Source of the DNA: Bugula neritina
Lineage: Eukaryota; Animalia; Bryozoa
Length of the DNA: 64,000 bases
Reading direction: 5' to 3'
Assembly (NCBI GenBank): GCA_964035545.1
Contig: OZ037770.1
Span: 3,690,662 to 3,754,661, forward strand
Shown piece by piece: positions 1,546 through 63,400 of the stretch. The position numbers and the translations under genes are program-made. Under the pieces are notes generated by a model, which worked only from the letters and a program-made list of their open reading frames with translations, had not been told where the DNA came from and made no database searches. Positions within the stretch are counted from its first letter, which is position 1. The number at the start of each line of letters is the position of its first letter.

Positions 1546-1720
1546 TGTAGTAATTCGTGCAATTACTGTGTGTGAGTTATCTACTTGCATATAGTTAGTT
1601 GGTTATTCTGCTAGCAATTACTAGGGTAGCTGTCGAGTAATTATATTTATTATCCACAATAAAGCATAAAGTAAACATCACATCAAATTATCCTATACAT
1701 CAGTCAACTACTAATACATG
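1546..1720 (-). repeat. Truncated 3' LTR of element 1 (U3 part and polypurine tract missing)
   Basis: Near-identical to 5434-5608, then similarity stops abruptly. Confidence 0.85.
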
Positions 1721-2188
1721 ACACCCAGCAGTGTCGTCGACAAAGCACCACGGGTAAGCCATTCTCCATTACAGGTTCTTCTTCCATAGGCAGAGAGGTT
1801 GGCTGGTCCCGTGACCGGGAGGTGGTCACACGAGTGTGATCTGAAAGAGTAGCAGTGTTAAAGATTATACACTGAGGTACCGTCGGCGTGTACAGCCTGA
1901 CCGGTACTCTGTTCAGTTACACTCGTGAGATTCAGGCTAATGAATAGTTGATGGAGAACACACTCGCTATGGCAGGTTATTTAAAATCAAAGTCGACGTG
2001 TATTCCCACCACTGTTTATCATTATCGAATCTCCAGCTCGCTAGCTAGTGTAGCTAAAGCTGACTGATGCAGTCTAGTTATCGTACCAAAAACCTAATTA
2101 ACTCACCCTTCGATCCAGAATAGTAAGACATTTTGGAATGAGAGCGGTAAATGATTACTGTTTAGTGGCACGTCTACTCTTGACTGCA

Positions 2189-4500
2189 TCAACGTAGGTA
2201 AAAGACCGGACAGCGTGGTTGTGAAACGTGACTAGGGCTTTTCACTTCCAGCGGATGAATCTCGTGTGAGATTCCGCCGAGGCAAAAGTTGAGATTTCCG
2301 TGGCGTTCACAACTCCCACGTCTCTTTGCCTGTTTTCCCATGCGAGGCCTCTCTAGACTTTCGTTACTGCCGCTTATACCGCGGTCACGTACACAGTCTC
2401 TGCGACACGCTGGAAGTTGCCTAGTGTGTGGTCCTGGAGGCGTCGTCACTGTGGGAGGCGGTGTGCTCACCCGTGGATTGTTATGTCTCACGGGTGGTTT
2501 TTCCAGCCTGTTTGTGACGGTTGTTCCTACGTTGGTATCTCCTTGCGGAGCCCCTCCCACGGGGGGTTTTTGCACTTCAGGACCCGTTTCTGGTCCCGGA
2601 AGTGGTGGTGATGGCAGGCTTGACGTTGGGGGCGGCGGGCGCACTTTCAAGGACGAAAGTGGCCTTTCTCGCCTCGCCAAGTCTTTCTGAGGTGCCATGG
2701 AGGTGTTTCCGGCCAGGACGACAGTCTCCGCTTGCCAAGACCTCCTCGCACAATGCGTCTGCCGCCCCGATTTACCAGGGAGACGGCTATGCTTGTTGGT
2801 CTGGCAGACTTCGCACCGTCTCACTCTGCGCCGGATATCCCGCTCCATGTTGGGCCAGTACCACCGGAGTTGTAGCTTGGTGACCACCCCTTGGACTCCT
2901 CCGTGAGTCTTCTCGTGGGTGTCTTGTATCAACTCCCGGCGGATGGCAGCTGGGCAGACGACCCTCTTCCTGGCTGGCTGTCTGCTGTTGGCAGCCAAGG
3001 TCATGGTCAGCAGACCATCTGGCCCGACCCGCAGAGAGTTCCAACGTTGACAGTACAGCCGTAATTCGGCGCATCCCTGTCGCCGTTGTTTACTACTGGG
3101 TCGTCGCCCTTCCTTTTTCGCTCGGTACACGTCGGCTACCACCCCAGGAAGGCTTTCCTGGAGCTTCAACAGCTCCCTAACGTTACCAGCCCATACAGGT
3201 TTGGCGCGGAGGCTCTGGACAGCCTCCGGGGGCGTGTCAGCCATCTGTTGGAGTTGCTGAGCAGGGGCGGTCTTCGCCGCCCGTGGTACCTCACGACAGC
3301 CTGCTCTATTTAGGCGGGCGTCGTGGTCTGTGTGGCGGAACACCTCACTGTACCCATGTGGCAACCTAGCCATAGCCTGGCGCTTTCCGTTGCCTGTGCA
3401 GCCACGCGTCCCTGGAGGATGGGAGGCGTGGGTTGGGACGGTCCTCCGCCCTTGAGACGGGCTCTGCTGAGGACCTTCCGTCGTAGCTCCCGACGACGGC
3501 CCAATGGCTTCCTCCTGGACAGGATGGAAGCGGCCCAGCATGGACCTGGGTGGTAGGTCTACTGTCTCTGAGGAGGGGTTGACACAATGCACTGAGATCT
3601 CTCCTTGTCCCGTAAGCCGGCTAAAGCTATGGGCAAGTTGGACTCTTGAGTGCGTATTTTCGACAACTCCCAACTTAGAGGTTTGGCCACCGTCTACCTT
3701 GCAGCGGACGGTAGCCCGGGAGTGGCCTGGTATAGTACAGCTCCGTACTACCTGCACTGCTCCCGCTAGAGGACGACCAAACTTATCGACACAAGTGAGC
3801 TCCCTGTCGCCCATGATCATCGCAGATTTACTGAAATCGATGCGACATCCGTGTCGTTGTAAGAATGGCATCCCGAGGATAGCGTCCTCGTTGAGCTGCC
3901 CGACGATAAACGTCTCTTGGATGGCCTGGTTACGGACGTAACCAGTCAGCTCAATAATGCCGTAGAAGGGAATGCACGACCCGTCTGCCAGGGTGCCATG
4001 ATCCCCTCATACGGTGCCAACCCGTCCTTGACCTTAGCGCTGAGGGTGTCAAAGAATTGACGGCTAAGGAGGTTGGTGGTGCAGCCTGGGTCCAGGAGGA
4101 AGTTGGCAGGCTTGCCGGCTAGCTTTCCTGGCAGGAAGTAGCTACTTCCGTGTAGCTGCAGCTGTGTGTGCCGTGGTTGCACCTCCCTCGCTGTGGGTAG
4201 AGGGGTCCACGGTTGGCGACGACTATTGACCAGCTGCCGAGGTTGAGGCGGTACGCCTTGCGGCGCCTGTACCGTTTCCCTCGCAGGCTCTGAGGTCAAC
4301 CGTCTGCCGGATCCGTGTTGGTGTTGGAGTGGCGTAGAGGACCCAGGCGGCGAGTGGCTTGAGCCTACTTGCCGCGGGGGTCGCCACTTCACAGCATCTC
4401 CGCGCGGCGCCCAGCGGGGCGGCAGACGCGCGGGCCTCCCTGGGTGATTTACAGACGGCCCGCAGGAGGTGGGAACATCTGCGGGCCGTGGTAGTTTAAC
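2189..4500 (-). pseudogene. pol: Deleted pol of element 1: protease (DPG instead of DTG), linker and integrase HHCC domain; no RT, RNase H or DDE core
   Basis: FLLDPGCTTNLLS, DAILGMPFL, HEKTH...CEVC; collinear with element 2 pol apart from two large in-frame gaps; 1-nt frameshift near 4003-4006. Confidence 0.85.
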
Positions 4501-5398
4501 CCTTGTTGGAGTTGAGGGCAGTTCCTCTGGAAATGTCCTGGCCTTCCGCATCCCCAGCAGAAGTTGTGCCCCATGCTTGGTGATTGTACCTGCGGCCCGC
4601 GAGGCTCACGGGCGATATCTACCTGGCTTGGGGGAGCTAATGTGGCGACCAGTTTATCTAGCATGTCAGTCATCTGTGCGACTTTTGATGCTAGTGACAT
4701 CTGGTTCACATTAGCCACCGCGGAGGGTTCCGCGTTTGGTTCGGTATGAGCAGTAGGGTGCTCCGTGGCCACTTGGCGGGAGGCCACGCGGCTGCGGTGC
4801 ATATGAGTCGCCATGAGGTAGGCTTCTCCCACCGCAAGTGCATCTTCGACCGTGGTGACTCCCCTCGCTTGGAATTGATGGTGGAGCCCCAAGTCGTTGA
4901 TGGATTGCACGAAGGCATCATAAGTATACCTCTCACGGTGTACTGGAGGCAGATCGCGGAACGCGATCTGCGCTAGTGGGTACACCGTGGCAGCGTGCTC
5001 TTGTAGCGACGTGTGAGGATCACGCCGCAGCCTTTGTAGACGGCCCGCGCATCTATGGGGGAGATGCCAAAGCGGGCCCGCAGAGAAGCAAAGATTTCGT
5101 CTATGTCAGGTCCCGCTCCGTACGGCTTAGCTTTGTCCGTCAGCGCCATCCTGAGCTTGAGCAATGCCACCCTTGGTGGCCACTGTGCAATTTCCATCAC
5201 ATCTTGGAATTCTTGGATAAACTGCTCCACTGCTTCTTCGCCTGTGAAGGTGGGCGCCTTCAGCCGGTATCTGTCTTCACCATGCTCTCTAGGAATTCTC
5301 ACTTCTTCTTCTAACACCACTGGTTCCACAGGTATATCAACATTATCTCTCTCACCTTCATTCAGTGGAATGGGTAGCTCCGTGCCGTCTTCTGCCAT
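4449..5398 (-). CDS. gag: Gag of element 1 (one apparent 1-nt frameshift near 5042)
   Basis: ORFs 4973-5413 and 4449-4985 join into one Gag matching element 2 (DRYRLKAPTF..VEQFI.EFQDV; CWGCGRPGHFQRNC knuckle). Confidence 0.85.
4455..4500 (-). promoter_or_regulatory. Predicted -1 ribosomal frameshift signal of element 1
   Basis: G TTA AAC in the gag frame, followed after 4 nt by a perfect 11-bp stem ACGGCCCGCAG/CTGCGGGCCGT; the protease ORF is in the -1 frame. Confidence 0.75.
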
Positions 5399-5414
5399 GA
5401 CTGCTATACGCAAG

Positions 5415-5432
5415 ATCCCACCGCTGCCACCA
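5415..5432 (-). promoter_or_regulatory. Primer binding site, tRNA-Leu
   Basis: TGGTGGCAGCGGTGGGAT 1 nt inside the 5' LTR; complementary to the tRNA-Leu 3' end ATCCCACCGCTGCCA-CCA. Confidence 0.9.
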
Positions 5433-5433
5433 C

Positions 5434-5786
5434 TGTAGTAATTCGTGCAATTACTGTGCGTGAGTTATCTACTTGCGTATAGTTAGTTGGTTATTCTGCT
5501 AGCAATTACTAGGGTAGCTGTCGAGTAATTATATTTATTATCCACAATAAAGCATAAAGTAAACATCACATCAAATTATCCTATACATCACTCAACTACT
5601 AATACATGTTTCTCCTTCAAGCCTCCGCTTACAACAACGTGATAATTTGTTAATAACCCGGGAAGTGTCACGTGAGTCGGAAGCATATCTTCCGGTGCTG
5701 CTAATTGGTTGCTACATAAGGGTCTTAGAATTCCCAGAATGGAGAGAGGGCGATTCCCGTATTTGTACTTTGCATGACTCACTACA
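5434..5786 (-). repeat. 5' LTR of element 1 (353 bp)
   Basis: TG...CA with a 6-bp terminal inverted repeat, adjacent to the PBS, followed by the TSD. Confidence 0.85.
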
Positions 5787-9293: not shown

Positions 9294-9364
9294 TGCCCTC
9301 CACTGAGATTCGAACCGAAGACCTCTGGCTTGCAATCAAGCATAAAATACCAGTATATCAGGGC
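9294..9364 (-). pseudogene. Degenerate tRNA-like sequence (tRNA pseudogene or SINE head)
   Basis: B-box GGTTCGAATC, GCCCT...AGGGCA acceptor-like ends and a T6 run just downstream; anticodon stem pairs poorly. Confidence 0.45.
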
Positions 9365-9542
9365 ATAATTTCACAGTATCTCGTCCTCAGACATAACACT
9401 TATGTGCCAATACGAGATACATTACATCATAAATAAATGTTGTCTATCGGCAAAAATTTTGCAGTAGCCAATCATAGTACTATAACAGGGCAGTCTGAGT
9501 GTAGTATCTCGTTTATCGGCATAATTATAATAGCCCGTAGTT
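9359..9542. repeat. Right arm of the long inverted repeat (partner 1-184)
   Basis: Reverse complement of the window start. Confidence 0.9.
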
Positions 9543-14838: not shown

Positions 14839-15187
14839 TGTGATAAACTTGTGGGTTGAATGTAACTTAGTGCAGAACAAGATAGGTTGAAGTAGTAGAG
14901 TTCCAAATGTTTATTATAGTATAAAAATAATGTCAACTTGTCTAGGCGAGCTCCAGTAGTAGACTGGCTTAACACCGTAACTCGCCTGCTTTTATATACA
15001 GCGAACAAAAGAACATAAAACAAAGAATCTTTTGTGTGTGTGGCCCGAAGTTCGGTAGCTCCGAAATTCGGCAGGCCCGAAGATCGGGGGAACCGATCTT
15101 CGGTCAAGCCGAAACTCGGAACTCCGAATTTCGGACCCCAATTAACATTATTGAACAAAAGAACAAACCAAGGCATAATCTATCACA
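14839..15187 (-). repeat. 3' LTR of element 2
   Basis: TGTGATA...TATCACA; identical to 22280-22628; minus-strand AATAAA at 14910-14915. Confidence 0.97.
15045..15134. promoter_or_regulatory. Array of six CCG-N5-CGG palindromes in U3 (3' LTR copy)
   Basis: 11-mers start at 15045, 15061, 15077, 15093, 15109 and 15124; a regulatory role is inferred. Confidence 0.75.
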
Positions 15188-15220
15188 CACACCCCCTATC
15201 GGAAAGCATGCTTTCCGATA
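15188..15220 (-). promoter_or_regulatory. Polypurine tract and adjacent 24-bp perfect palindrome
   Basis: AGGGGGTGTG abuts the 3' LTR; TATCGGAAAGCATGCTTTCCGATA at 15197-15220. Confidence 0.7.
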
Positions 15221-15396
15221 CGAGGGCGAATAATAACATAATAACAATGAGACAGACAATAAACAAAACAAAAAAAAGAAACAGAAGAGAGAGAACAAAG
15301 AAACAAAACAAAACAAAACACCAAGTACATAGTATAAGGGACAACGAATATGTATAACAGAGAATTGTCATGCCACCAGTCAGGGAGAGGGGGGTC

Positions 15397-16815
15397 TCAC
15401 TCCCTCCATGTCCCATCGTCGTTGTCGGTCTGACGTCGTTCCAGCCGGATCAGTCGTCGTCGCAATTGTGTCAGATCTTCCTCACACCGTGCCACGCGGC
15501 GCCGTAAGTGGCGCACCTCCTCTTCTAGTTGCGGTCGGGAGCGGAGTGTGTTGCGCTCCGGGTGTTGTCTGTGCTCTGGGTGGTGTCTGCTTGCCGCCGA
15601 GGAGCGGGGGTCCAGGTCCGATGTACCGGGTCTGGCACCATCCCCGACCCTTGTCAGCATGACCCGAAGAGGCTGGGTGGCTGCTGGTTGGAGGGCGGCG
15701 GCGGGTTCTCCGTCTTCTTCTTGAATTGCTCTGCACGCCGGAAACCCTTGGCCGAGGGTGGCACGCTTGTGGGGGTCCGCGACGTGCGGCAGGATGAGGT
15801 CCCGGAACTCCGGAAATGTGGCCTGATCCACGGTGAACACGTGACCTGGGTGGCAGCGCGAGATGCGCTGGTGGCGCAGCACATAATCCCGCTGGTAGGA
15901 GTATTCGCCGCAAGGGCAGAATACGTTGATGAAATGTTGTGGGGCGTGAACACGCAACCGCCGGGAGGAGGAGAATTTCCTCCGACATTGCCGGCAGATG
16001 CGGTTGCCCGCTGCCCCGCATGCTTCACTAATCTTCTGATTAGTGTCGCGAGAGACCCAGGACTGGCGGGCGACCAGTGCCTGGGGTAGAGCCAAGGTGG
16101 GGGTGTCACCGTCTTCAGCTCGAGTAGAGGAGGGCACACCGCATAGTATTCCCTGTTCCTCCCCGGCGGCTAATTGTAGCTCAACTGGGTTGGCGACAGG
16201 GTCACTATTCATGGTGGATAGCACCTCAGTTCGGTCTGTGGCGACCCGCGGGCTGCAAGGAGCCGTCACGGGGGCTGGTGGAGGGGGGGAGTCGACTCGA
16301 CTGACCTCCACCTCATCACACTCCATTGCAGTGTCTACAATAGACAGCAGAGGCCGAGTAAGGCCGGTCTCGCCGTCGCCGAAATTCGGCATCGCCTTAT
16401 AGGGTACTTTGTGGGTGGTAGGGAGCCGAGGTGAGTCATGGAGAGTGACTGACCCTATGTCCTGGTCTAATAAAAACTCATTTAGAGAGTCTTCTCCAAA
16501 ACTCACATCGACTTCCTCCGTTAATAAATTAGATTCTAACAAATCTAAACTAGCCCAATTAATTACAGTTGAGTCAGACTCCGGTACGGGAGGCTCTGAC
16601 TCTAATGAAATACCTGTGTTTGTAGTGTTGTTACCGGGAAGAGTAATACCCATATCCAATTCGTGATTAATTCGATTACAAGTTTCAGCTTTAAAATTGC
16701 GTGTTACTAGTGGGTTAGTAGTAGTGCAAATGGCCGAGCCTCGTGTTTCAATATTTTTACCTGCTACGCGATCGTGGGGAATTCCCATCGAGTTTTGAAG
16801 GGACAACTCAGACAA
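15397..16815 (-). CDS. Element 2 ORF3: acidic region, tandem zinc fingers and C-terminal coiled coil (not Env); true start uncertain
   Basis: 472 open codons; CRQC-x12-HAPQH followed by CPC-x12-H-x5-CH; heptad LEEEVRHLRRRVARCEEDLTQLRRRLIRL; no signal peptide or TM segment visible. Confidence 0.8.
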   Translation of the reverse strand: MSELSLQNSMGIPHDRVAGKNIETRGSAICTTTNPLVTRNFKAETCNRINHELDMGITLPGNNTTNTGISLESEPPVPESDSTVINWASLDLLESNLLTEEVDVSFGEDSLNEFLLDQDIGSVTLHDSPRLPTTHKVPYKAMPNFGDGETGLTRPLLSIVDTAMECDEVEVSRVDSPPPPAPVTAPCSPRVATDRTEVLSTMNSDPVANPVELQLAAGEEQGILCGVPSSTRAEDGDTPTLALPQALVARQSWVSRDTNQKISEACGAAGNRICRQCRRKFSSSRRLRVHAPQHFINVFCPCGEYSYQRDYVLRHQRISRCHPGHVFTVDQATFPEFRDLILPHVADPHKRATLGQGFPACRAIQEEDGEPAAALQPAATQPLRVMLTRVGDGARPGTSDLDPRSSAASRHHPEHRQHPERNTLRSRPQLEEEVRHLRRRVARCEEDLTQLRRRLIRLERRQTDNDDGTWRE

Positions 16816-16892
16816 TCGCGTGCCCTCCGAATTTCGGTTTGCAACTGTTCCTTTTTGTAGTGATTCTCCAGGAGGTTGGAAGAATTTACTAA

Positions 16893-19800
16893 CTAAGGAG
16901 GAGTAATGGCCCTGGACAGATGGATTCCCACTTGGGGGGGGGGCAACCCTAGGTGTCCTATGTGATAGTCTGCCAGATATCTGGGTGGTTTCCTCGCTCG
17001 CTGGCTCCTTTCCAGCGGTGTGGGTGCTGGTGGTGCCAGTTGCTCCTCAGTTGCCACCGTAGGGGGGTCCCCGCCTTCACCCGTAATACGGGTGGGGGTG
17101 TCCTCCCCCCAGAGGGGTGGTGGCTCTGGGGCGTGTTGCTGCTGCTGCTCCTGCCTCTGTTGTTGTTCCAACTGTTCTCGTAGGGCAGCCTGCTCCTGCT
17201 CTGCCTCCCTTCGGATGACAATTTCCACCTCCCGGGGCCGGGTGGCTCTCCCCCGCTGGTTAGGCTGGCGGTTGGGCTCCAGGAGGGGTGGAGCCTGACC
17301 CACCGCGTCTGGGCTGGCATGGTATGGTTTCAGGCGCTGTTCGCTCTGGACTGAGACCTGTCCAGAGCGCTCCACACGGTATGTGTGGTTGGCCAGCACC
17401 TCCACCACGCAGTAGGGACCCACGAACTTGGGCTGAAGTTTAGCCGACTGTCCGCGTCGCCTACGATAGCTCACCATCCAGACCCAGTCTCCCACCTGAT
17501 ACAATGGGGGCTCTTCTGAGTCCTCTGTGCGGATCTGCCACTGCTGGGCCCGCAGTGCATCATGGGCTTTACCCATGATCTCTGTCAGTCTTTCGACGTA
17601 CTCATGTACCGGCGATTCGGGGGCGGGAACGTGGTATGTCAGGTGTTCCGGAACCCGCGTTTCCCGGCCTAGCATCAGGAAGTTTGGGGTCTCCTGTGTG
17701 GTGGAGTGTGGTGTGCTGCGGTAAGCCCGCATGATTTGTGGCAGCACCACGTCCCATTCTTCCTGACCTCGACCAAGGAGCAGGCTCCTGAGGGCGTCAC
17801 CCAACATCCTGTTGTTCCGCTCGACGACTCCGTTCCCTTGTGGGTGATATGGGGTGGTCCGACTCTGGTTCACCCCCCATATCCGGCAGAGGTCTCCCAT
17901 GAGCTGGGACTGGAACTGGGCGCCCTGGTCCGTATGTATCTGCTCGGGCAAACCGAGGTAACAGAACACATGTTGGTCCAGGGTCCGGGCCACCGTGGGG
18001 GCAGTTGCGTCTGGGATAGCCAGAGCATCCGCCCACCGGGTAAAGTGGTCCGTGAGCACCAGTATCCAGGTGTTCCCTCTGGCGGATAACGGCATAGGCC
18101 CGACAAGGTCTACCGCCACTACTTGCCACGGTCGACCAGCGTACAGCCGGCGTCGACCAGTGGTTTCCGTGGGGCGGCCATGCTTGCTAGCTTGGCAGAC
18201 CTCGCATTGCCGTACCCGCAGTCGTACGTCCCGAGTCATTCCGGGCCAATACCAACGCAGCCGCAGACACCTGATGACCCGACTGACTCCAGAATGAGCC
18301 TGCTTATGGGTGTCCCAGATCAGTTCCCGTCGGAGGGCGCGTGGACAGACGACGCGGTCCCTCTCCTGCTGACGGTTGTCTGCTGCTAACGTTATCATCA
18401 GGAGGCCATCAGGACTGACCTTGAGGGCATCCCAGCGACGACAGAGGAGTTGGAACTCAACGTCTCCCTGCCGCTGCTGTTCCTCGCTAGGTCGTCGGCC
18501 CTCCTTCTTGGCCCGGAAAATGTCCGCTACCGGGCCGGGTAGCGTCTCCTGGAGTCGGCACAGCTCCTTGACATTCTGGTACAGAGTGGGGTTGGCGTGA
18601 AGCGCCTGGACGTCGTCTGAGTGGGTTTCGGTCCGAAGATGGCCGTGCTCCCACCGATAGACGGCGCCCTCCCCTAACTCTGTTTCCACGTCAAGGCGAG
18701 CGGGTCCCCCGTCCCGTTTTTCAATGTGCAGGCATTGCTTACAGTCTTCTACCGGCCGGCGGCTCATGCCGTCGGCGTTTCCGTGCTTCCGGCCAGCACG
18801 GTGTTCTATCCGGTAAGAGAACTCGGCAAGAATCTCTAGCCAACGAGCTACCTGGCTCGAGGGCTCCGCACGTTTACACAGCCATATCAGTGATGCATGG
18901 TCTGTTCGCAAACGGAACGTTCTCCCATACAGATATGGCCGAAAGTGCTTGACCGCCTTGACTACTGCTAGGAGTTCCTTCCTAGTGGTGCAGTAGTTCT
19001 TCTCGGCGGCCGCGAGAGTCTTGCTGTAGTAAGCCACGACCACCTCACTTCCACCCTGGACTTGAGACAGGACAGCTCCCACGCTGTGGTCACTGGCGTC
19101 GGTGTCCAGGATGTACTCCTTGGCTGGATCAGTATACGCCAGAATTGGCGCCTCCATTAGCCGTTGCTTGAGGTGGTCGAATGCCTGCTGCTCCTCCTGC
19201 GTCCACTGCCACCGGACCCCTTTTGCGGTCAGCCGATTTAACGGCTGAGCCACTCCTGCGAAGCCAGGTATGTACTGCCGGTAGTACCCTACTAGGCCCA
19301 AGAATGCGCGCAACTCAGGGAGGTCACGGGGGACAGTCCACTGCTTCACAGCCTGTACCTTCTCTGGGTCGGTAGCGACCCCATCACGGCCCACCACATG
19401 GCCCAGGTACGTGACTTCCGGCTGCAAGAGTGCACACTTGGAGGGCTTCAGCTTGAGTCCAGCTGCCCGGAGGCGGTCAAAGACCTCCCGCAGACGACTG
19501 ACATGAGTCGAAAAGTCTGGCGAGATGACAATGACGTCGTCCAGATAGATGAGGAGGGTCTTCCAGTGTAATCCACTGAGGACCTGCTCCATGAGCCGTT
19601 GGAAAGTTGCCGGGGCGGACGTTAGTCCAAATGGCAGTACTTTCCACTTCCAGAGCCCGTCGCGAGTAATGAATGCTGCTTTGTCCTGGGCATCAGGACT
19701 GAGAGGCACTTGCCAGTACCCGCTAAGCAGATCCAAAGTACTGAAGTACTTGCTACCCGCGAGGGCATCCAGAGACTCATCTATCCGTGGGAGAGGGTAG

Positions 19801-21352
19801 GCGTCTTGGATGGTAACGCTGTTGAGTCTGCGGTAGTCCACACAGAACCTCCAGCTACCATCTTTCTTCTTGACCAGGACTACTGGAGAGCTCCACGCAC
19901 CGTGGGCAGGCTCAATCAGATCCCGGTCGAGAAGATCCTGTACCTGTCGGCTCACCTCCTTCTCCTTCTCCGGGCCTAGACGCCGGGTAGGCTGCCTGAT
20001 GGGAGTGGTGCCGGCTGCCAGGGGTATCTCGTGGGAGATGACCTTGGTCAGCCCCATGTCTCTATCTCCACGACTGAAGACATCACTGTACTCCGCAAGT
20101 AGTTGAGCCAGTACTTGGCGTTCAGTACTACTTGTACAGTTTCCACACGCCCCATCATACAGGTCAGCCATATGCTCCGGGACTGCTCCTCGTCTGGTGT
20201 GAGGGGGGTTCCCCTGGGTGTCGGCCACTGTCTCCAGTGCCGGACCCACATCCGCTTCCTGGATGGAGTGGTACTTCCCCACCAGCGCTCCAGCCGATAA
20301 TCGGACAGGTTCCGTGAAGGGGTTGATGCACTGCACGAGGAGCTCCTGCCGACAATCTAGCCGATTCAGGCTGTTTGCTAGTCGGATCGCTCCGTGCGTT
20401 CCCTCAACCACCCCAGGCCGGCGATCCCCTTGCAGTTGACTCTGCAGCGAAGAGTCGCCTGGGATCTTCCCGGAACCGTGCAGTCCCGCACTACCTGGAC
20501 TCCGCCCACCAAGGGCCTTCCGAACTTGTCGACGCAGACAAGCTCCTTCCCAGCCATCACCACCACTGACTTCTGGAAATCCATGTGACACTGGTGTTTC
20601 TCCAGAAACGGCATTCCCAGGATGGCGTCCTCCTTCAGCTGGCTGACTATGAACGTCTCGTGAATTGCTTGATCACGGACGCGTCCAGGTAGTGAAATGA
20701 CGCCGTAGAAAGGAATGCATGATCCGTCCGCCAACGTACCATGCGCACCTTCATACGGCTCGAGGCTCGCCCGCTCTCGTGCACCAAGAGTGTCAAAGAG
20801 ACGCCTACTCAGCAGGTTGGTAGTGCACCCAGTATCCAGTAGGAATGTGGCAGCTTTACCCGAAATCTTTCCGGGCAGAAAGTAGCTGCTTCCATACGGC
20901 TGGGCGCTCCTGGAGCGGTCAGTCTCTGGGGGAGACACAACTTGGGTCCGCACAGCGGGCCTCCTCTTTGTCTTAGAGACAACGGGGGTTTTCTGAGGTC
21001 GGGAGGGTAGCTTGGGGTACTCTTGCGAGTAAGCTGAATCCTCCTCCACAACCTCCTCGGGCAACCCCGCGAACCGGTTCTGGAGTGGCCAGGCCGGAGG
21101 ATCGGGTAGACCTTGCGGTCTCCGAGATCTCCGAGGTGCCTGCCATCCTGCTTCTTCTAGCTGCATCCGGGTCTCGAGTGACACGGCCGGAGGATCGGGT
21201 AGACCTTGCGGTCTCCGAGGTCTCCGTGGCCTCTGCCACTCGGTATCGGCAGACCCTGTGGAGGTCTCTTCTCCTCTTCGAGTCCTATCCCGGATGGGAT
21301 TGGCGTGAGGCCCACGGTTGGCGGAAGTTACCGTGAGCCTTGGGTGTTTAAA
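16893..21352 (-). CDS. pol: Pol polyprotein (protease, RT, RNase H, integrase) with one apparent 1-nt frameshift at 20411-20414
   Basis: LLDTGC; LPFGL and YLDD; TDASDHSVGAVL; HKQAH..CEVC; DLVG..TDQG..VERNN (DDE); GPY motif. Confidence 0.95.
21308..21352 (-). promoter_or_regulatory. Predicted -1 ribosomal frameshift signal of element 2
   Basis: T TTA AAC in the gag frame, 5-nt spacer, 11-bp stem AGGCTCACGGT/ACCGTGGGCCT; the -1 frame is open into the protease. Confidence 0.85.
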
Positions 21353-22233
21353 GGCCCTTGGCCTCTAGGGCAGTGCCTCCTCACATGCCCTTGCACCCCG
21401 CACCCCCAACAGGTTAGTAGAGATGGGCGGACAGGGTTGTCCCGTGAACGGGGAGCCCGCCTATCCGCCTGTTCGCTCTGCAACTTCGTCACTGTAGCCT
21501 GCAGGCCTTTCATCATGTCCATTAACATGGTGAGCTGCGTCTGCTCGAGTGATTTAGTTGCTGCGGCCGCTACTTGGGGTTTAGCAGGCAGGGCGGTCTC
21601 CTCATCGACCACCTGGCGGGCGGCGAATCTTGGTCCTTGAAGCTCTTCTACCTGGAAATAGGCTTTACCCGTTTCCAGAGCTTCGTCCAGGCTGCCCACC
21701 TTGCCAGCCATCCAATAGCGTTGGAGGTCAGGATGATTTATACTCCGGAAAAACGCGTTGTACACCAGGCGCTGTCTTTCCGTTCCGGTAGCCTGGCTGA
21801 AAGCAGCCTGGGCCAAGCGTTCCACCACGTTGGCGTGGTCCTCCAATGATGTCCTCCTGTCCCTTCTCAGGGCCTGTAGGCGGTCAGACGCCTCCTCTGA
21901 CGTCATGCCAAACCTGGCCCTTAGGGCACGTAAGATGTGTGCTTCATCGGGCCCCAGAGCGAAACTCTTGGCCCGGCCTGTCAAACAGGCCCGGAGTTGG
22001 AGGACGCGCACCGGCACTGGCCATTCAGCGATGGTGGCCACGTCCTGGAACTCCCGGATGAATTGCTCCACATCCCCATCACCTCCAAAAGTTGGGGGAC
22101 TGAGGCGGTACCTGTCACCAGGTGGCGCCTGCCCTGTCCCCTGCAACTTTCGGAGGGCTGTCACCAAAGCCTCCACAGTGAGGGTTGGTGTCGCGGCTGC
22201 TCCAGGGGTTGCCTCCTCACCCCCTGGAGCCAT
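21328..22233 (-). CDS. gag: Gag of element 2 (301 aa)
   Basis: ATG shortly after the PBS; CWGCGVQGHVRRHC zinc knuckle. Confidence 0.93.
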   Translation of the reverse strand: MAPGGEEATPGAAATPTLTVEALVTALRKLQGTGQAPPGDRYRLSPPTFGGDGDVEQFIREFQDVATIAEWPVPVRVLQLRACLTGRAKSFALGPDEAHILRALRARFGMTSEEASDRLQALRRDRRTSLEDHANVVERLAQAAFSQATGTERQRLVYNAFFRSINHPDLQRYWMAGKVGSLDEALETGKAYFQVEELQGPRFAARQVVDEETALPAKPQVAAAATKSLEQTQLTMLMDMMKGLQATVTKLQSEQADRRAPRSRDNPVRPSLLTCWGCGVQGHVRRHCPRGQGPLNTQGSR

Positions 22234-22260
22234 CTTGTTCTTCTTACACTAGTATTCAGA

Positions 22261-22278
22261 ATCCCACCGCTGCCACCA
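22261..22278 (-). promoter_or_regulatory. Primer binding site, tRNA-Leu
   Basis: TGGTGGCAGCGGTGGGAT, identical to the element 1 PBS. Confidence 0.92.
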
Positions 22279-22279
22279 A

Positions 22280-22628
22280 TGTGATAAACTTGTGGGTTGA
22301 ATGTAACTTAGTGCAGAACAAGATAGGTTGAAGTAGTAGAGTTCCAAATGTTTATTATAGTATAAAAATAATGTCAACTTGTCTAGGCGAGCTCCAGTAG
22401 TAGACTGGCTTAACACCGTAACTCGCCTGCTTTTATATACAGCGAACAAAAGAACATAAAACAAAGAATCTTTTGTGTGTGTGGCCCGAAGTTCGGTAGC
22501 TCCGAAATTCGGCAGGCCCGAAGATCGGGGGAACCGATCTTCGGTCAAGCCGAAACTCGGAACTCCGAATTTCGGACCCCAATTAACATTATTGAACAAA
22601 AGAACAAACCAAGGCATAATCTATCACA
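22280..22628 (-). repeat. 5' LTR of element 2, with TATA box (22431-22437) and palindrome array (22486-22575)
   Basis: Identical to the 3' LTR; minus-strand TATAAAA lies about 50 bp downstream of the array. Confidence 0.97.
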
Positions 22629-27169: not shown

Positions 27170-30097
27170 GTTGATTGACCGTAGTTTTTTAGCTGGTGTA
27201 ACCTTTTACCATTGGCCTAGTTATCACACTAGGCTGGAATGGCTAGAACTTTCCTCAAGATGTGAGCTTATCCTGATCCTAGTAAGGGTGTCTGCTGAAT
27301 TAATGAGCATCTGTTTTCAGCTACTCCAAGTAGTGACAGCCAGTCTACAATCTTGTATAAAGGTCCAAAGGCTCCAGTTACAACGGGATAACTTTTTTGA
27401 TGTTTTCCAAAGGCGGGTTTATTCTAATGCTAAATTCTGATATTTTCCTAACTTTTCGAATTTTTTTCTTTTACTCTGTAGTTAACAGGGACTGTGATAT
27501 CAATTATCGTTGTTTCAGCATTATGCTTGTCAACTACTAATATATCGGGTCTCCTAACTTTGATGACTACGTCAGTGTGTAAGTTAAACTCTTACAAGGT
27601 TTTTACATTATCATTTTCCAGTACTGATTCTGCTTGATGGCCGTACCAATTCTTACTTTTCTAAACCCACGAAGTTCACACAACTACTATTGAAATTATC
27701 AATGCCAAAAGGTTGTGTTTTTTCTTATATTCTCCTTCTGCTACCTTCTCAAACTCACTCAATACGTGCATCGAAGTTTTGTCTCTTGCGTTACACATTC
27801 CACACTTCTTGCTACCCTGTTCTCTCATCATAGCCACTTTATAATTTCTAGTAGTGAATAGTTGATCTTGCGCAGCTGTCAGTCCTTCTGTTTCCTTTTT
27901 CAGCCAACCATACTTCAACCAGTTCCAGGAAAATGCTTTCATGTCTTCCACCATTTTGATGTATTGACCACGTGAAGCTTTTCTTTACACTCATCAGTTC
28001 TTTCTATCACTTTATCATTGTTTAGTTCTACCACCGTTTTGTCTTTTAGGAAGGTATTCAGTGTGGTGTTTCTATCAGTCTATGTTATATTTATGTAGTC
28101 TGACATGCTGCAGTTTTCAATCTTTATGCATTTTTCAGTTGACAACATTCTTCTACCGCCTTCCCTTCTGCTAAAATACAGCCTGCCTACATCTGCTCTC
28201 GGATAGGGTGCACGGTTTGTCTTTCAGTCCATATTTTTTAGCTCATGAAACAGTTCAGTCAAGTATTCTAGCTGTGTAATGCACTGCTGTTACTGCCCAT
28301 GTGTTTATTGCTTTGATTGTGTTCTCACCATTCAGTTTTGAATCCAGAACTTTTCTTATTTGTTTGTAGTACTCCTTGATCTTATTTTTCATTTCATATA
28401 TTTGTATTCTATCAATCTCAAGAACTCCTAGATATTTATACGGCTTCTCACCCAGATCTTTGATTACCTGTTCATCAGGCAAACTGATTCCTGTGTCCTT
28501 GATTTTCTTTCCCTTTCTCATAACCAGTGTGGCACATTTTTTAATCCAAATTTCATTTCTATATTCCTTGTGAAGATCCGGGCAGTGTTTACCAAAGCTT
28601 CCAGTTCTGACTTTGATTTCCTATTTACCTTCAGGTCATCCACATACAGGAGATGGTTTGTTTTCTGTCTCGTCGAAATTTGCATCATTGAGCCGCTTCT
28701 GTCATGCGAATCGGTAGTTGGAGAAAAGGGATAGAGATAAAGAGTCTCCTTAGAAAATTCTTAGTTTGATCTTTATGTCTCCTATCTTTTCTTCCAGGTA
28801 TTTCAGTTGTGTTTTCCAGGTTTCATGCTTTTTCTTATCAACCTTATGACATTAATTACTATTCCAGTTGTTTGCATCGTTTCTAAGATCTAATTTCCTT
28901 GTCTTTACATATGCTCCAATTTGTTGCTAACTTTATTTAGTCATTCTGCATTGGTATTATTTTTAGTTGGCTGACCTCATATATTTTATCAGAATGCTTT
29001 TGATTTCCTTGTCAGGTGCCTCTTTAGATGTACATTCATTTCCTCGTAATGCTTGATAAAAGCGCTTATCATTGTAAACATTGTGTTCTGATTATATTGA
29101 TCAACTCATTCTGTATATCTGTTTATCTTCTGGCTTACAGCTCTCAGGTTTTGCTTCAGTTTTTCAATCACTACACCACACTCTTTGTTCTTTATCCTAT
29201 ATTTTTCTTCAACCATTCTTCTCAATGAATCATTGTAAGCTCTACTTTTTCACTCTGCTATTTTACTTAAGTCTGATCTAATTTCTTTTTATTTCTTCTG
29301 CAGTCGTATTTTCCATACTTGTACATTATCAGTTTTTCGTTTTCCTTTTTGTTACACACTTGTTCTGTTACTATTTTTCGCACAAGCCATGGTGGTGTTA
29401 TTAAGCTCAATGGTATTAATAATCTCAACACAGTTTAGCACATCATTAATCTGTTTTACTGCCTGTAGTAATTTGACCCTCTCAATGTGCCTAAGGGCTC
29501 TTAGTGTTGGTCGATCATTAGATAGTTTTTTTATGCTCATTTATAATTTTTCTACTAACAATTTTTCTACCTCTGAACTAGGTACTCTTAAAATTCTCAT
29601 GGCTGATTTATATGCTATCTCATGTTGTACTATAACATCCTCTATTTGCAAATTTAGCTCTTCATTATCTCCTTCATCAATTGATGTGCCTAGTTCTTGC
29701 AAGGTTCCTTCTTCAATCTTATGGAGTTCTTCTTCCATAAAATGCTTGTGTTTCTTCATAGTTCTTGTTTAATCCGCTAGTCTCTATTCGCTGATGTTAA
29801 ACTCTCCTCTGTTTTCCAGCGTTTGCACATTCTTTTTAAATAATTCTTTGATCCGGGTCTACAGAGCTCATACATTGTTTTTCTATAACCTCTCAATTTG
29901 GGTGTACTTTTGAAGCAGCATTTCATGACAACTTTGTTGTCTTCTCTTGAGTATCTTCTTCTAGTTGTGCCAGTAACGGGTTGACGGCCGTAGGTTGCCT
30001 GGTCCTCCACATACCCACTGCCAGACGAGACATGCCATGTTTAGTTAGACATACCATTAACGTCGTTGGCTTTATTAGTTCTATTTTAATGGATCAT
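27170..30097 (-). mobile_element. Decayed non-LTR retrotransposon with restriction-like endonuclease (R4/Dong-like)
   Basis: HLLYVDDLK (about 28630-28655), YKYLGVLE, IKAINTWAV, KETEG..AAQDQ, a Cys/His knuckle remnant and RPDILVVDK; many stops and frameshifts; (ATT)n on both flanks. Confidence 0.85.
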
Positions 30098-60417: not shown

Positions 60418-63400
60418 TTAGGGGTTGTCCTTTCTATTAAACCCATCGAAGCCAGGAAAAAGGTAAAGTCTTTTACCATAAGGAAGAGTATTCCAGATTA
60501 CAATCAAATTTCCGTTTCTCTCTGAATCTTGATCTGCATACAGTTTCTTCACTAGTTTAGTCTGCACCTGTAGAGTAAGTAATGACTAGTAAGATTGTTT
60601 ATCAATTCACTGTTGTAGCTGAGCCAAGATGTAAATATGGTATCCTACTTGTAACAAATATGAACAGCAAACACTTTGGGAATTGTCTACCACCGTCTAA
60701 TCATATAGCATATAGCAGTACAGTGGCACTAGTTATTAGCAAATTACAAGAACATATTGACAAGGAAAAGAAACTATAGAGCTAAAGAAATTGTAAGAAC
60801 AAAAGCTACTAGTTAAACTAAAGAAAACTAGGAATGACGTTCTGTTACTAAAAATAGTAGATATCTTTTTTCAAAGGATAAAAGAGTTCAAACATAGAAA
60901 CGAATAAAATGATACGATGAGAAATAATTTTTTAATTTCTTAAATAAAAATTGAAATAGTAAAAAAGTTTGTGATTTTTAAACTCACATGCTGGAAAATG
61001 GTGTAGAGATCACGGTGACAGGCATGTTTGTAGATTGAAGATACTAAAGCTCTAATCATAGGAGATCCATACTTAAGATGTCTCTTTGATGCTATAATAA
61101 AATTGAATGCAGTCAAAATACAGGTCAAGATAGACCAACTCTAACACGTTTTAGTTTTAGTGGAACATAAAATTTTTAATCTCAAGTTTCTGGAAAATAC
61201 TATCCTCATTTTGATGCTGCAATAACAGTATATGGTGTAGTCAGAACAAGTTTTTTTTTTTTATTTCTGTTTAGTTTTTAGCATTAGCAAGCAATATGGC
61301 TAGTACACGGAAAAGCTTAAATAACATGGTCATATTAACTTTAGGAAACAAACTTTTAGATTGACAAAAACTGTAGCTGCACACTTATCAAACCAATGAA
61401 TAACTGTCTCCTGCTATACTTACAGCAGACATTACTCTTCAGAACAAGAAGATCATCTATATCCCGTAGAGTTCTACACTCTTCTATTCTAGGTTCTGGT
61501 GGTGAGACTGGTCTACTGGGTCTAATTCTTTTTCTTGGCGGTTCAGGATATTCCTCATCGTTTTCTTTATTAGCTTCAGAGTGTGTAGAAGAGACAGCTT
61601 CAGTTTCTTCTTCTTGAGCTGCTGCAAAACTTGATCTATCTGGATTCGCCTCAATGTCTGCTGCAAGACAAACATTTCAAATATCTTGACTTTGTGAGCT
61701 AAGCAATCTCGAGACACTCAGTTACTCAAGCATCAAGACTGTGAATCAAGTTAAAGTATATATTGATTAGATGACTGGTCTCTGACAGGAAGTCTTCACT
61801 AGTTTAACCATTGAACTAAAAGTTCCAGTTTTTACCACAAAACAACTACCTCCACTGCTGGCTTCTAGGATGACAACTTTAGGTTTTCTCCTCATCCCAT
61901 CGAAATACAAAGGAGTGAGTAAATCATGAAGTTCAGTGAGGTTGACCTTCCTAAGGTCAGTTCCATAGATGCAGTTATCTTCCCCACCATGAGTCATGAC
62001 AACCAGCATATGACATCCCAAGTCTTTGTGTGTTTCTTTTTTCACCTCAGTCTTCACTGTAGACAGCATTTCCTGAAAATTTGAAAATGTGTATATAACC
62101 AATGATATAAATTTACTTTATTTTAAGTTGTCAAATGACTGTGATTTATGCAATGCAAACAAAAACTTTTCACATGATTCTACCTATCAAAAGACCAAAC
62201 AGTGAAAAAAACCAACAAGCTCCAGAAATTTTGATGCAGTTGTAGAGAAATTCTAAAAACAATAAAAAAAACATACCTAATATAATGGATGTAAGAAATA
62301 ATTTCATTTTGTTAAAATATTTTACATGCTTCAAAAATATTTGATTAAAGGACAAAAAAACATTATACATGAAAATTTACTTGATGGTCAAATAGTGTTC
62401 GCGCATTACCTTCACCATAACAACATACCTCTGCCTTTAGATCTGTGTGTGTCTCAACATCAAACTTGAGAGATTTCAACATGACAGACATGTTCTCAAC
62501 ATCAGCATCTGAACCTTCCCTGCATAAGTCTGGTCTTTCAACAAAGTTCTTGTTGTTTATTATCAGAGCTTTTCCTCTCTCTCTGGTCATACTGAACACC
62601 TGGATATAAATATAATTAGAGTATCACATACAGTAGTGACACACATGAGCCAAAGTTGAGAGTACATAAATAGTGGCATGCTTTCAAAATAAATAGTAAT
62701 AGTTAATTTAGCTCTCAAGATGCCATATATGGTGCCTCCAATTTCTAGATCTGACAAAAAGCAGTAAAACACTCTCTTAATTGCAAAATCAATTTACATC
62801 TTTATGCTAAAATTTAAATTTGTTACTTTTTAGGTATAACATGAACTAAGCAAACTTTTGTTTAAGACACCAGTTGTCATTTTTTCCAACAAAACATGTA
62901 GTCAATTAGGTATGCTGGTTATTTTTACAAAATCATTCAGGATATTATTGAGATTACAAAATACGAGTTATTACACTGCATGATATTATATTATTGAAAA
63001 TAGTTTATATTTAGCATGAAGTTTTTACAAACCAATTATGTATTTGCAAGGCTGTAGAACGAAATAAAGACAATTTATGGGTATAATAAAATTTGTTTGC
63101 ATATAACACTTTGCTGATCTTAAAGTAGACCATGGTCTAATTTATGTAAACAGAATTTTCGAAACCAAACCATCTGCAAAACGTTTACCTAACTTTCAAA
63201 TACAATTGATCGCAATAGAAAATTATGGTAAATTCAACTTCAAGCTAAAAAGTCAGAAAAGAAATCATAATATAAAATGTTTGCCCCACTAGGATTACTC
63301 TATGGCTATATAGGAGTTACTGGGAAATCCCAATCTTTCATTCTAAGCAATTCTTTTGAACTCGATTTACAACTCCTTCAGTCTTCAGGTTCTCTTAGCC

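Follow-up and report, generated by a model that had tools for sequence, protein, structure and literature searches.

A Gypsy retrotransposon of the bryozoan Bugula neritina with a possible self-encoded zinc-finger regulator and a palindrome array in its LTRs

Self-encoded trans-activators are a mark of complex retroviruses, where the virus-coded proteins Tas (Bel1) of foamy viruses and Tax of HTLV act on U3, and Tas, which binds DNA, additionally activates an internal promoter close to the 3' end. To our knowledge, LTR retrotransposons are assumed to be reliant on host transcription factors, and we know of such self-coded switches so far only from complex retroviruses and plant DNA transposons. 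The element described here shares with Tas and Tax an element-coded trans-activator on U3, here a predicted one, but differs from these env-bearing vertebrate retroviruses in being an env-less Gypsy element whose C2H2 module is continuous with Pol in other copies. The Ty5 targeting domain is a chromatin-directed module at the integrase C-terminus. The chromodomain of chromovirus integrases is likewise an extra module of this kind in this position (PMC2774666). The present element differs from both in its double zinc finger, LxVxL motif, coiled coil and matching LTR array, and a chromodomain was not found.

Among plant DNA transposons, VANC of VANDAL is similar in being a transposon-coded, sequence-specific protein with tandem target arrays that differ among related elements (PMC5735166; PMC12844716). 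The protein is a different one, however, and its demethylating activity has been shown experimentally, whereas for the Gypsy element we infer regulation. TnpA of Spm is an accessory factor which binds clustered cognate motifs to activate its own family (bioRxiv 10.64898/2026.08.24.746577). Depending on the lineage, the DNA-binding domain of TnpA is either fused to the transposase or separate from it, and the module described below stands in the same relation to Pol. Spm differs in being a DNA transposon with helix-turn-helix domains, and the terms “retrotransposon” and “LTR” are absent from the available text of that preprint. A literature search, mostly at the level of titles and abstract openings and with subscription journals and Repbase reports outside it, returned no Gypsy element combining a self-coded C2H2 regulator with an LTR array.

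The window, that is the whole stretch of 64,000 nt of Bugula neritina (OZ037770.1) that was analysed, contains a Ty3/Gypsy element on the minus strand, extending from LTR to LTR at 14839-22628, with the following features.

22280..22628, minus strand: 5' LTR, 349 bp, identical to the 3' LTR
14839..15187, minus strand: 3' LTR, 349 bp
14989..14998 (3' LTR) and 22430-22439 (5' LTR), minus strand: LTR TATA box TATATAAAAG
14961..14967, minus strand: initiator-like CCAGTCT, ~30 nt past the TATA box, role putative
22260..22279, minus strand: primer binding site
21328..22248, minus strand: gag ORF with one CCHC knuckle, weak zf-CCHC Pfam match
21346..21352, minus strand: TTTAAAC heptamer at the end of gag
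20378..21364, minus strand: protease frame, with a frame break to RT near 20410 in the window copy; other copies differ there
16893..20672, minus strand: pol, with RT, RNase H, integrase, SH3-like domain and integrase tail motif
15192..15197, minus strand: short purine tract preceding the 3' LTR

Both LTRs have TG...CA ends with a short terminal inverted repeat, and the element is flanked by a 4-bp target duplication. With its LTR pair identical in sequence over 349 bp, the Gypsy element is young. The LTRs, target duplication, primer binding site and purine tract, together with the domain order of gag followed by PR-RT-RNase H-integrase, are those of Ty3/Gypsy, and no chromodomain was among the Pfam matches of pol and ORF3 at E<=1, hence the element is not classed as a chromovirus. 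By consensus, TATATAAAAG is a TATA box and CCAGTCT is initiator-like, and the primer binding site is presumably of tRNA-Leu type. Likewise by consensus, TTTAAAC is likely a -1 ribosomal frameshift site leading from gag into protease.

A third reading frame, ORF3, overlaps the end of pol and has the following parts.

15397..17046, minus strand: ORF3 / Pol C-terminal module, an open frame of 549 codons between stops, read from 17046 to 15397
16788, 16653, 16392 and 16326, minus strand: in-frame ATGs of ORF3
16447..16602, minus strand: acidic and hydrophobic segment of 52 residues with a net charge of -14 and a conserved D-F/Y-L-L-D-Q-D motif
15724..16101, minus strand: basic double zinc-finger domain, one finger C2H2 and the other CxC..H, flanked by helices
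15655..15669, minus strand: LRVML, predicted HP1 chromoshadow-type LxVxL motif
15421..15537, minus strand: C-terminal heptad helix, likely a coiled coil

ORF3 thus has the acidic stretch, the two fingers and the coiled coil that an earlier note on this DNA had described. That note made its reading depend on ORF3 being conserved as a protein, and this is the case, the zinc ligands being retained in 93-100% of 88 aligned rows. Differences between copies, in contrast, weigh against the regulator reading favoured below: of the 29 listed within ORF3, from more than 2000 for the element, 16 change a residue, and only four fall in the finger domain, three of them silent. The ORF3 profile resembles DNA-binding tandem C2H2 proteins (best E 1.9e-7), and Cys/His spacing and conserved ligands are those of a tandem C2H2 protein with a second finger of CxC type, the linker between the fingers being HFINVF and not of TGEKP type. 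Structure prediction gave a confident double C2H2 fold for the finger region (pLDDT 94), the best structural matches being DNA-bound finger pairs at Z 3.5. Structure searches with the finger core returned nothing at E<=0.001, from which a new fold does not follow, and the full-length fold from 12 sequences was poor (pLDDT 38.5). The recognition-helix residues (-1, 2, 3, 6) are S/R/R/V and Q/D/Y/R, and the C2H2 code fails to predict the palindrome half-site from these helices.

A profile search placed 214 clusters in the ORF3 family at E<=0.001, with the best 150 representatives no longer than 596 aa. Named members are bryozoan, with homologues in Bugula and Watersipora, and cluster-atlas look-ups for ORF3 gave solely unnamed or generic C2H2 clusters. 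The family is large and apparently undescribed, and its double-finger domain lacks a Pfam model of its own. Some double-finger members carry annotations as host genes of bryozoans, so that element and host may have exchanged the domain.

The palindromes that this module might recognise are distributed as follows.

22486..22575, no strand: U3 array of six CCGA-N3-TCGG palindromes, 5' LTR
15045..15134, no strand: U3 array of six palindromes, 3' LTR, with a ~16-bp period and overall mirror symmetry
16827..16837, no strand: internal palindrome A
16379..16389, no strand: internal palindrome B, where relatives code P-[N/K]-[F/I]-G
20294..20304, no strand: additional palindrome within pol, alone not significant (79/1000 shuffles reach it)

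Six palindromes in each U3, about 50 bp before the TATA box, and two recurrences at sites A and B had been reported earlier. All were recovered, with 46 nt measured from the end of the last palindrome to TATATAAAAG and start-to-start spacings of 16, 16, 16, 16 and 15, and the copy at 20294 had been overlooked. In total the 64-kb window holds 15 copies of CCGA-N3-TCGG, every one inside the element, against 0.03 expected from shuffles, and none occurs across the ~52 kb of host DNA in the window. The ORF3 region contains two against 0.042 expected, and none of 1000 shuffles reached two. Chance products were rejected on these window-wide and ORF3-region shuffle controls. A clustered, element-specific motif at a promoter is the pattern expected for the target of a trans-regulator.

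Host sites commonly accumulate in LTRs, and the array could instead be bound by a host factor, DEAF1 or another CpG reader, with the zinc-finger module unrelated to it. The DEAF1 core, TTCG/TTCGG, is present in its half-sites, and paired CpGs are bound by DEAF1 when unmethylated, the repeated half-sites tested having 6-11 nt between CpGs and a 7-nt gap being the weakest (PMC4274154). However, CpG gaps here are 5 nt within a palindrome, ~7 nt between units and ~14 nt between same-strand half-sites, and the motif is missing from the host DNA as well as from a related element that lacks the module. We regard binding by a host factor as improbable.

The array might also act as RNA, a hairpin in the 3' U3 being bound by the module for export or stability of genomic RNA, in the manner of CERV of Cer1. 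CERV, encoded by an LTR element of Gypsy type, is a regulatory protein of the nucleus and an example of an LTR retrotransposon export protein, but its action is on RNA export from a spliced mRNA, and the abstract mentions neither zinc fingers nor a DNA array (PMC10309623). The array RNA is predicted to fold into a single hairpin of -68.6 kcal/mol, which beats 967/1000 order-permuted and 995/1000 letter-shuffled arrays in which the palindromes were retained. These controls nevertheless average -55 to -61, 20/64 orientation variants fold equally well, and the bulk of the folding energy is the palindromes' own contribution. Furthermore, the lone sites A and B cannot build such a stem, site B flips freely, and an Rfam search gave no match for the array, so that a role as RNA seems very improbable.

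Two further candidate features lie within ORF3, close to the internal palindromes.

16729..16764, minus strand: block common to diverged copies, AT-rich to initiator-like, candidate internal core promoter
16396..16401, minus strand: TATAAG coding conserved Tyr-Lys, candidate second internal TATA box

Residue 136 at site B is Asn or Lys in 37/37 well-aligned relatives (27 and 10, respectively), and the full palindrome is encodable there in 29 of the 37. Exchanging Asn for Lys at this residue amounts to flipping site B in orientation, and the swap is recurrent, with at least eight changes on a tree of 40 rows, some of them poorly aligned. Judged from these coding patterns, palindrome B looks conserved as DNA. 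Site A is encodable by the relatives P0006, P0066 and P0008.

Site B falls between the TATA-like word and the next conserved Met, an operator-like placement which favours a module that binds the palindromes yet represses, recruiting HP1 to the LTR and limiting copy number. HP1 partners carry PxVxL-type motif variants in a disordered, basic-flanked setting (PMC12526061), and the LxVxL/PxVxL motif here has a conserved core in just such a position. HP1-type motifs (PxVxL/LxVxL/CxVxL) occur in 21 of 37 tails against 8.4 in shuffled ones (maximum 16), where the rows are not independent, many of the 21 being closely related, and strict PxVxL by itself is unenriched (7 against 4.5). The acidic-hydrophobic motif is conserved as well, and we take it to be of a type typical of activators, while six sites before a TATA box form an enhancer-like arrangement. 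The two motifs would therefore point to opposite signs of regulation, and repression appears rather improbable.

How ORF3 is joined to pol differs between copies, at one feature in particular.

16930..16945, no strand: run of G where pol and ORF3 overlap, longer or shorter in the window copy than in the deepest family contig

The register of the G run near 16934 in this deepest contig carries the integrase frame on into ORF3, and in the proteins P0006, P0008 and P0105 the integrase tail and ORF3 share one frame. Of the third ORF in the env position proposed in the earlier note, the separate ORF stands for the window copy only, since ORF3 is in frame with integrase elsewhere, and it is not Env. 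An Env identity was rejected as no membrane segment is present (peak 19-residue hydropathy 0.57, residues from 16791), and Pfam gave no env family match, hence the element does not class as an errantivirus. Bdelloid LTR elements also have a non-env third ORF after pol (PMC5408684); theirs are of lipase, exonuclease, transmembrane or coiled-coil types, and the word “zinc” is absent from the available text of that paper.

The in-frame linkage (one deep contig, three proteins) suits a role in integration, in which the module would mainly be an integrase extension that tethers the integration complex, either by LxVxL/PxVxL to HP1-marked chromatin or by the fingers to the U3 palindromes of the element itself, much as chromovirus chromodomains or Ty5 targeting do. 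A distant Gypsy element, L035, is also in frame at the integrase tail, and where aligned copies differ in length before the fingers, the frame is mostly preserved (gaps add up to 3, 12 or 15 in five listed records and to 16 in another). The frequency of HP1-type motifs in the tails, subject to their relatedness and to the unenriched strict PxVxL, is in agreement with tethering, and the insertion site lies at high coverage depth, as expected of a host repeat. A separate product, however, is favoured by the promoter-like conserved DNA block and by internal methionines, which are conserved, where the protein reaches further upstream, at 16653 in 8/12, at 16392 in 26/37 and at 16326 in 29/43. This methionine pattern suggests an additional, separate ORF3 product. 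Tethering would also leave the palindromes by the ORF3 start unexplained, and the array is at the TATA box, not at the LTR tip. None of 5412 candidates scored when long fusions of Pol and ORF3 (1044-2980 aa) were sought among proteins, which is weak evidence. We consider tethering unlikely, yet it and repression are live alternatives because the module is in frame with integrase elsewhere and carries an HP1-type motif.

The protein P0045 continues from ORF3 into an LTR whose six compatible sites are spaced 16 nt apart, and P0100 has three compatible sites (both seen as translated protein only), while a related element at 1546-5608 of the same window, itself deleted for RT, is without ORF3 and without the array. 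For the co-occurrence that the earlier note proposed to check, there are thus two close relatives with both parts and one related element with neither. L035, with Pol 35% identical, encodes a pair of C2H2 fingers beyond the integrase tail, together with an acidic tail. It contains GCGGAG 11 times where 1.04 are expected, in a cluster before the fingers and also in U3. By the finger code, its helices fit GCG GAG, a word that also resembles a host GC-box. The match of the L035 fingers to those of ORF3, at a probability of 56%, falls short of establishing homology, and the parallel is a single case found after the fact; L034, another distant pol relative, has neither module nor enriched word. Alignment-based scans of viral, metagenome and genome contigs confirmed no DNA of an ORF3 relative, and integrase and RT queries of viral contigs gave no matches. 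A degenerate finger pattern hit no viral loci and eight in metagenomes, of which none belonged to the family or to a retroelement, and the 25 viral loci that a three-unit array pattern hit all lacked similarity to pol and ORF3.

Taken with the conserved tandem C2H2 protein, the constraint on site B and these relatives, the reading we favour, with a probability somewhat short of even, is that the module is a self-encoded, sequence-specific regulator which would bind CCGA-N3-TCGG and switch on the LTR promoter in trans. The zinc-finger module at the end of the Pol frame is likely also produced alone from an internal start: downstream of site A, a promoter near 16729-16764 would give a short mRNA with its start at the conserved Met 16653. 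The module likely pairs through its coiled coil, and the dimers would read the two half-sites of a palindrome. Co-activators recruited by the acidic motif would close a positive feedback loop at the six sites in U3, and site B, just past the TATA-like word, together with the LxVxL motif could damp the loop. CpG observed/expected is 1.08 in the LTR against 0.39 in the host, and such CpG-rich sites in a CpG-poor host may make the switch methylation-sensitive, or protect against methylation. The dimeric zinc-finger autoregulator of the earlier note is thereby retained in part, its weak points being the frame shared with integrase and the HP1-type motif. More doubtful is a broad invertebrate Gypsy group with a transcription factor at the Pol end, in which finger pair and DNA word would have co-evolved lineage by lineage, the word being CCGA-N3-TCGG here and GCGGAG in L035 and having multiplied in U3 and near an internal promoter.

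If the favoured reading is true, a Gypsy element that encodes a DNA-binding regulator and carries the matching operator array would blur the line between retrotransposons and complex retroviruses, and would be an animal counterpart to the plant VANC and TnpA systems. If the broad reading is also true, LTR retrotransposons would have a family-specific, self-coded switch or anti-silencing system.

A self-coded regulator is the simplest account of the palindrome array, the internal sites and the ORF3 protein together, a reading we hold tentatively, at a little under even confidence. The ORF3 module is proposed to bind the palindrome: a dimer would read it, LTR activation would fall to the acidic motif, and either site B or the LxVxL motif would restrain the loop. 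The features concerned, with one probable neighbouring gene, are:

22628 to 14839, minus strand: Gypsy-type LTR retrotransposon, delimited by its LTRs and a 4-bp flanking duplication
1546-5608: second Gypsy element, related to the first, whose 175-bp LTRs are 98% alike; RT and RNase H deleted
61770-62117, minus strand: exon-sized frame with a caspase domain match (E 1.2e-8), probably a host caspase gene

The first element is Gypsy by structure, and neither errantivirus nor chromovirus. Its two 349-bp LTRs show zero differences, a 4-bp target duplication lies on either side, Pfam recovers the Gypsy order of protease, RT, RNase H and integrase, and the primer binding site is presumably of tRNA-Leu type. 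Sequencing run X1, which includes other family copies, also shows an unoccupied form of the insertion site, at a high depth that suggests a host repeat as target, hence the unoccupied site need not be an allele. Fragments at 27676-28620 resemble a decayed non-LTR retrotransposon, and Pfam yields nothing for them at E ≤ 0.01.

The 64-kb window contains 15 copies of CCGA-N3-TCGG against 0.03 expected, and every one falls inside the element: six per LTR, two in the ORF3 region (site A, 16827-16837; site B, 16379-16389) and one in pol (20294-20304). The six U3 palindromes that the earlier note placed near the TATA box are present in both LTRs, with a period of ~16 bp and the last 46 nt ahead of TATATAAAAG, beyond which an initiator-like word stands at the usual distance. 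The extra motifs it saw upstream of and inside ORF3 are likewise real and exceed chance (0 of 1000 shuffles reach two); the single pol palindrome does not (79 of 1000 reach its count). CpG observed/expected is 1.08 in the LTR vs 0.39 in the CpG-poor host DNA. Were the array instead to act as an RNA hairpin, its fold of -68.6 kcal/mol, which beats 967 and 995 of 1000 palindrome-keeping controls, would be in keeping, but 20 of 64 orientation variants fold equally well and we consider this very unlikely. It is also improbable that a host reader such as DEAF1 binds the array: it has a TTCG core in common with the palindromes, but their spacing fits poorly (PMC4274154). Directly before the purine tract (15198-15219) stands a perfect 22-bp palindrome with outward-facing TCGG and CCGA half-sites, perhaps an additional site or else an RNA hairpin. 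CCGA-N3-TCGG arrays, many at a 15-bp period, also occur in 25 viral contigs; they look to us like phage replication-origin iterons, and no link between these 25 and the element was seen.

ORF3 (15397-17046, minus strand) belongs to a family for which a search of 1.84 billion representatives gave 214 clusters (E ≤ 0.001), or 101 at the stricter limit of 1e-10. Its named homologues are those of two bryozoans, Bugula neritina and Watersipora subatra, which makes a bryozoan, or else another marine invertebrate, the likely host. Its conservation, which the earlier note had wanted checked, is clear, seven zinc ligands being retained in 93–100% of 88 core-covering rows (87 relatives and the query, drawn from 158 proteins). 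The acidic segment and C2H2 fingers described there are borne out by a net charge of -14 over 52 residues, with a D-F/Y-L-L-D-Q-D motif kept (D109 in 33 of 34 rows), by profile matches (best E 1.9e-7) to tandem C2H2 proteins that bind DNA, and by a compact 135-residue AlphaFold domain (82 sequences, pLDDT 94.2, pTM 0.86). Structure searches of the core gave nothing at E ≤ 0.001, the best being a weak match of the finger pair alone to Kaiso (Z 3.5), and a Pfam scan of the window's ORF3 protein found no family reaching its own cut-off. The coiled coil agrees with a C-terminal heptad helix in 26 of 37 tails, by a rough measure, these being the tails long enough for scoring among 81 relatives. A P/L/C-x-V-x-hydrophobic motif occurs in 21 of the 37, many of them close kin, vs 8.4 in shuffles (maximum 16, 500 shuffles), and strict PxVxL by itself is not enriched in them; LxVxL and CxVxL are listed among variants of the HP1-binding PxVxL motif in PMC12526061. 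HP1-based self-repression, with the same palindrome binding and the opposite sign, seems quite improbable to us. P0021, P0126 and P0160 are family members annotated as bryozoan genes, and P0021 and P0036 have the double-finger domain twice; these four are possibly host genes, domesticated copies or the module's source.

ORF3 had been described as a third ORF in the env position. It is a separate frame in the window copy, overlapping the pol end, but not Env, which was ruled out because a membrane segment is absent, and elsewhere it shares a frame with integrase. The deepest run X1 contig (depth 745; covering 15676-17067) has one other letter and a G run near 16934 that differs in length from the window's; there the integrase frame runs on into ORF3. 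Integrase tail motif and ORF3 also form a single frame in P0006, P0008 and P0105, and the distant P0141 begins with integrase sequence. A full-length Pol-ORF3 fusion was not found in the protein collection, which is weak evidence as most records are fragments. A second frame break in the window copy, protease/RT near 20410, is at a point where other copies differ, and both breaks may be assembly errors or copy-specific mutations. If the module tethers integration, its HP1-type motif and its link to Pol would be accounted for, though not where the palindromes lie; we judge this reading unlikely. Signs that ORF3 may also be made separately are a Met kept in relatives reaching further upstream (8/12 at 16653, 26/37 at 16392, 29/43 at 16326) and a block common to diverged copies (16729-16764), with an AT-rich word at its start and an initiator-like word at its end. 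These copies, from three runs, align as far as 16839-16841, just beyond site A, and we infer an internal promoter for ORF3. On the minus strand, a span of ~72 nt (16690-16761) contains a donor-like CAG/GTAAAA, a TACTAAC word resembling a branch point, and an acceptor-like AG: a candidate in-frame micro-intron or part of the internal promoter.

Site B looks conserved as DNA, judging by its codons. It codes P-N-F-G, the second residue being Asn in 27 and Lys in 10 of 37 well-aligned relatives with no third residue, and these forms correspond to CCGAATTTCGG and CCGAAATTCGG, one site in either orientation. The whole palindrome is encodable in 29 of the 37 (30 of 45 without the alignment filter). 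Within residues 47-230 so strict an alternation of Asn and Lys is seen at no second position (four residues mix at position 201). On a 40-row tree the swap takes a minimum of 8 changes, part owed to poorly aligned rows. Just upstream, the Lys of a Tyr-Lys pair is found in 33 of 35, coded with its Tyr by TATAAG in the window copy.

Co-occurrence of ORF3 with the U3 array had been proposed as a check. P0045, 79% identical over the finger-domain end, continues into an LTR where six sites compatible with the palindrome recur at intervals of exactly 16 nt; P0100 carries three such sites, and one other of 162 proteins two. The element at 1546-5608 has the same primer site and related proteins (gag 35-55%, protease 53-64%, integrase piece 57%); it has neither ORF3 nor an LTR palindrome, yet its RT is also deleted. 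It carries a 3' region of its own and is probably non-autonomous. Inverted repeats of 184 bp (1-184 and 9359-9542, 98% complementary) enclose it and may be DNA transposon ends.

An RT search recovered two distant elements, L034 and L035, on contigs that had strayed into bacterial bins, in the case of L035 that of a symbiont. L034 lacks both a finger pair and a comparably enriched word.

L035:7-5770: Gypsy element, one 1728-residue frame

RT, RNase H and integrase come first in this frame, then the tail motif and a pair of classical C2H2 fingers, with an acidic tail last. GCGGAG occurs 11 times vs 1.04 expected, and 500 shuffles gave at most 5. Four copies stand immediately upstream of the finger pair and one inside it; U3 has two, of which one directly precedes the TATA box, and the remaining four lie at other places in pol. 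Six of 11 Ala-Glu pairs are coded GCG GAG, though GCG accounts for 15 of the 88 codons for Ala; a further three copies are out of frame. By the zinc-finger code, the helices (finger 2: R, Y, K at -1, 3, 6; finger 1: L, N, R) fit GCG GAG; the same code does not yield the palindrome from the window's fingers, whose linker and flanking helices are of non-classical type. The layout appears to parallel that of the window element, as a single case noticed after the fact in which any finger homology to ORF3 is putative.

The proposed mode of action would be like that of foamy virus Tas, which is unrelated to the window element. It would also resemble those of VANC (PMC5735166) and TnpA (bioRxiv 10.64898/2026.08.24.746577), with no relationship. 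The extra proteins of LTR elements described in PMC5408684, PMC13524379, PMC2774666, PMC2836005, PMC12844716 and PMC10309623 are of other kinds. The combination of a Gypsy element, its own C2H2 regulator and an LTR array was not found described in a full-text search of openly available literature. The element's arrangement is real and unusual, and its palindrome binding putative.
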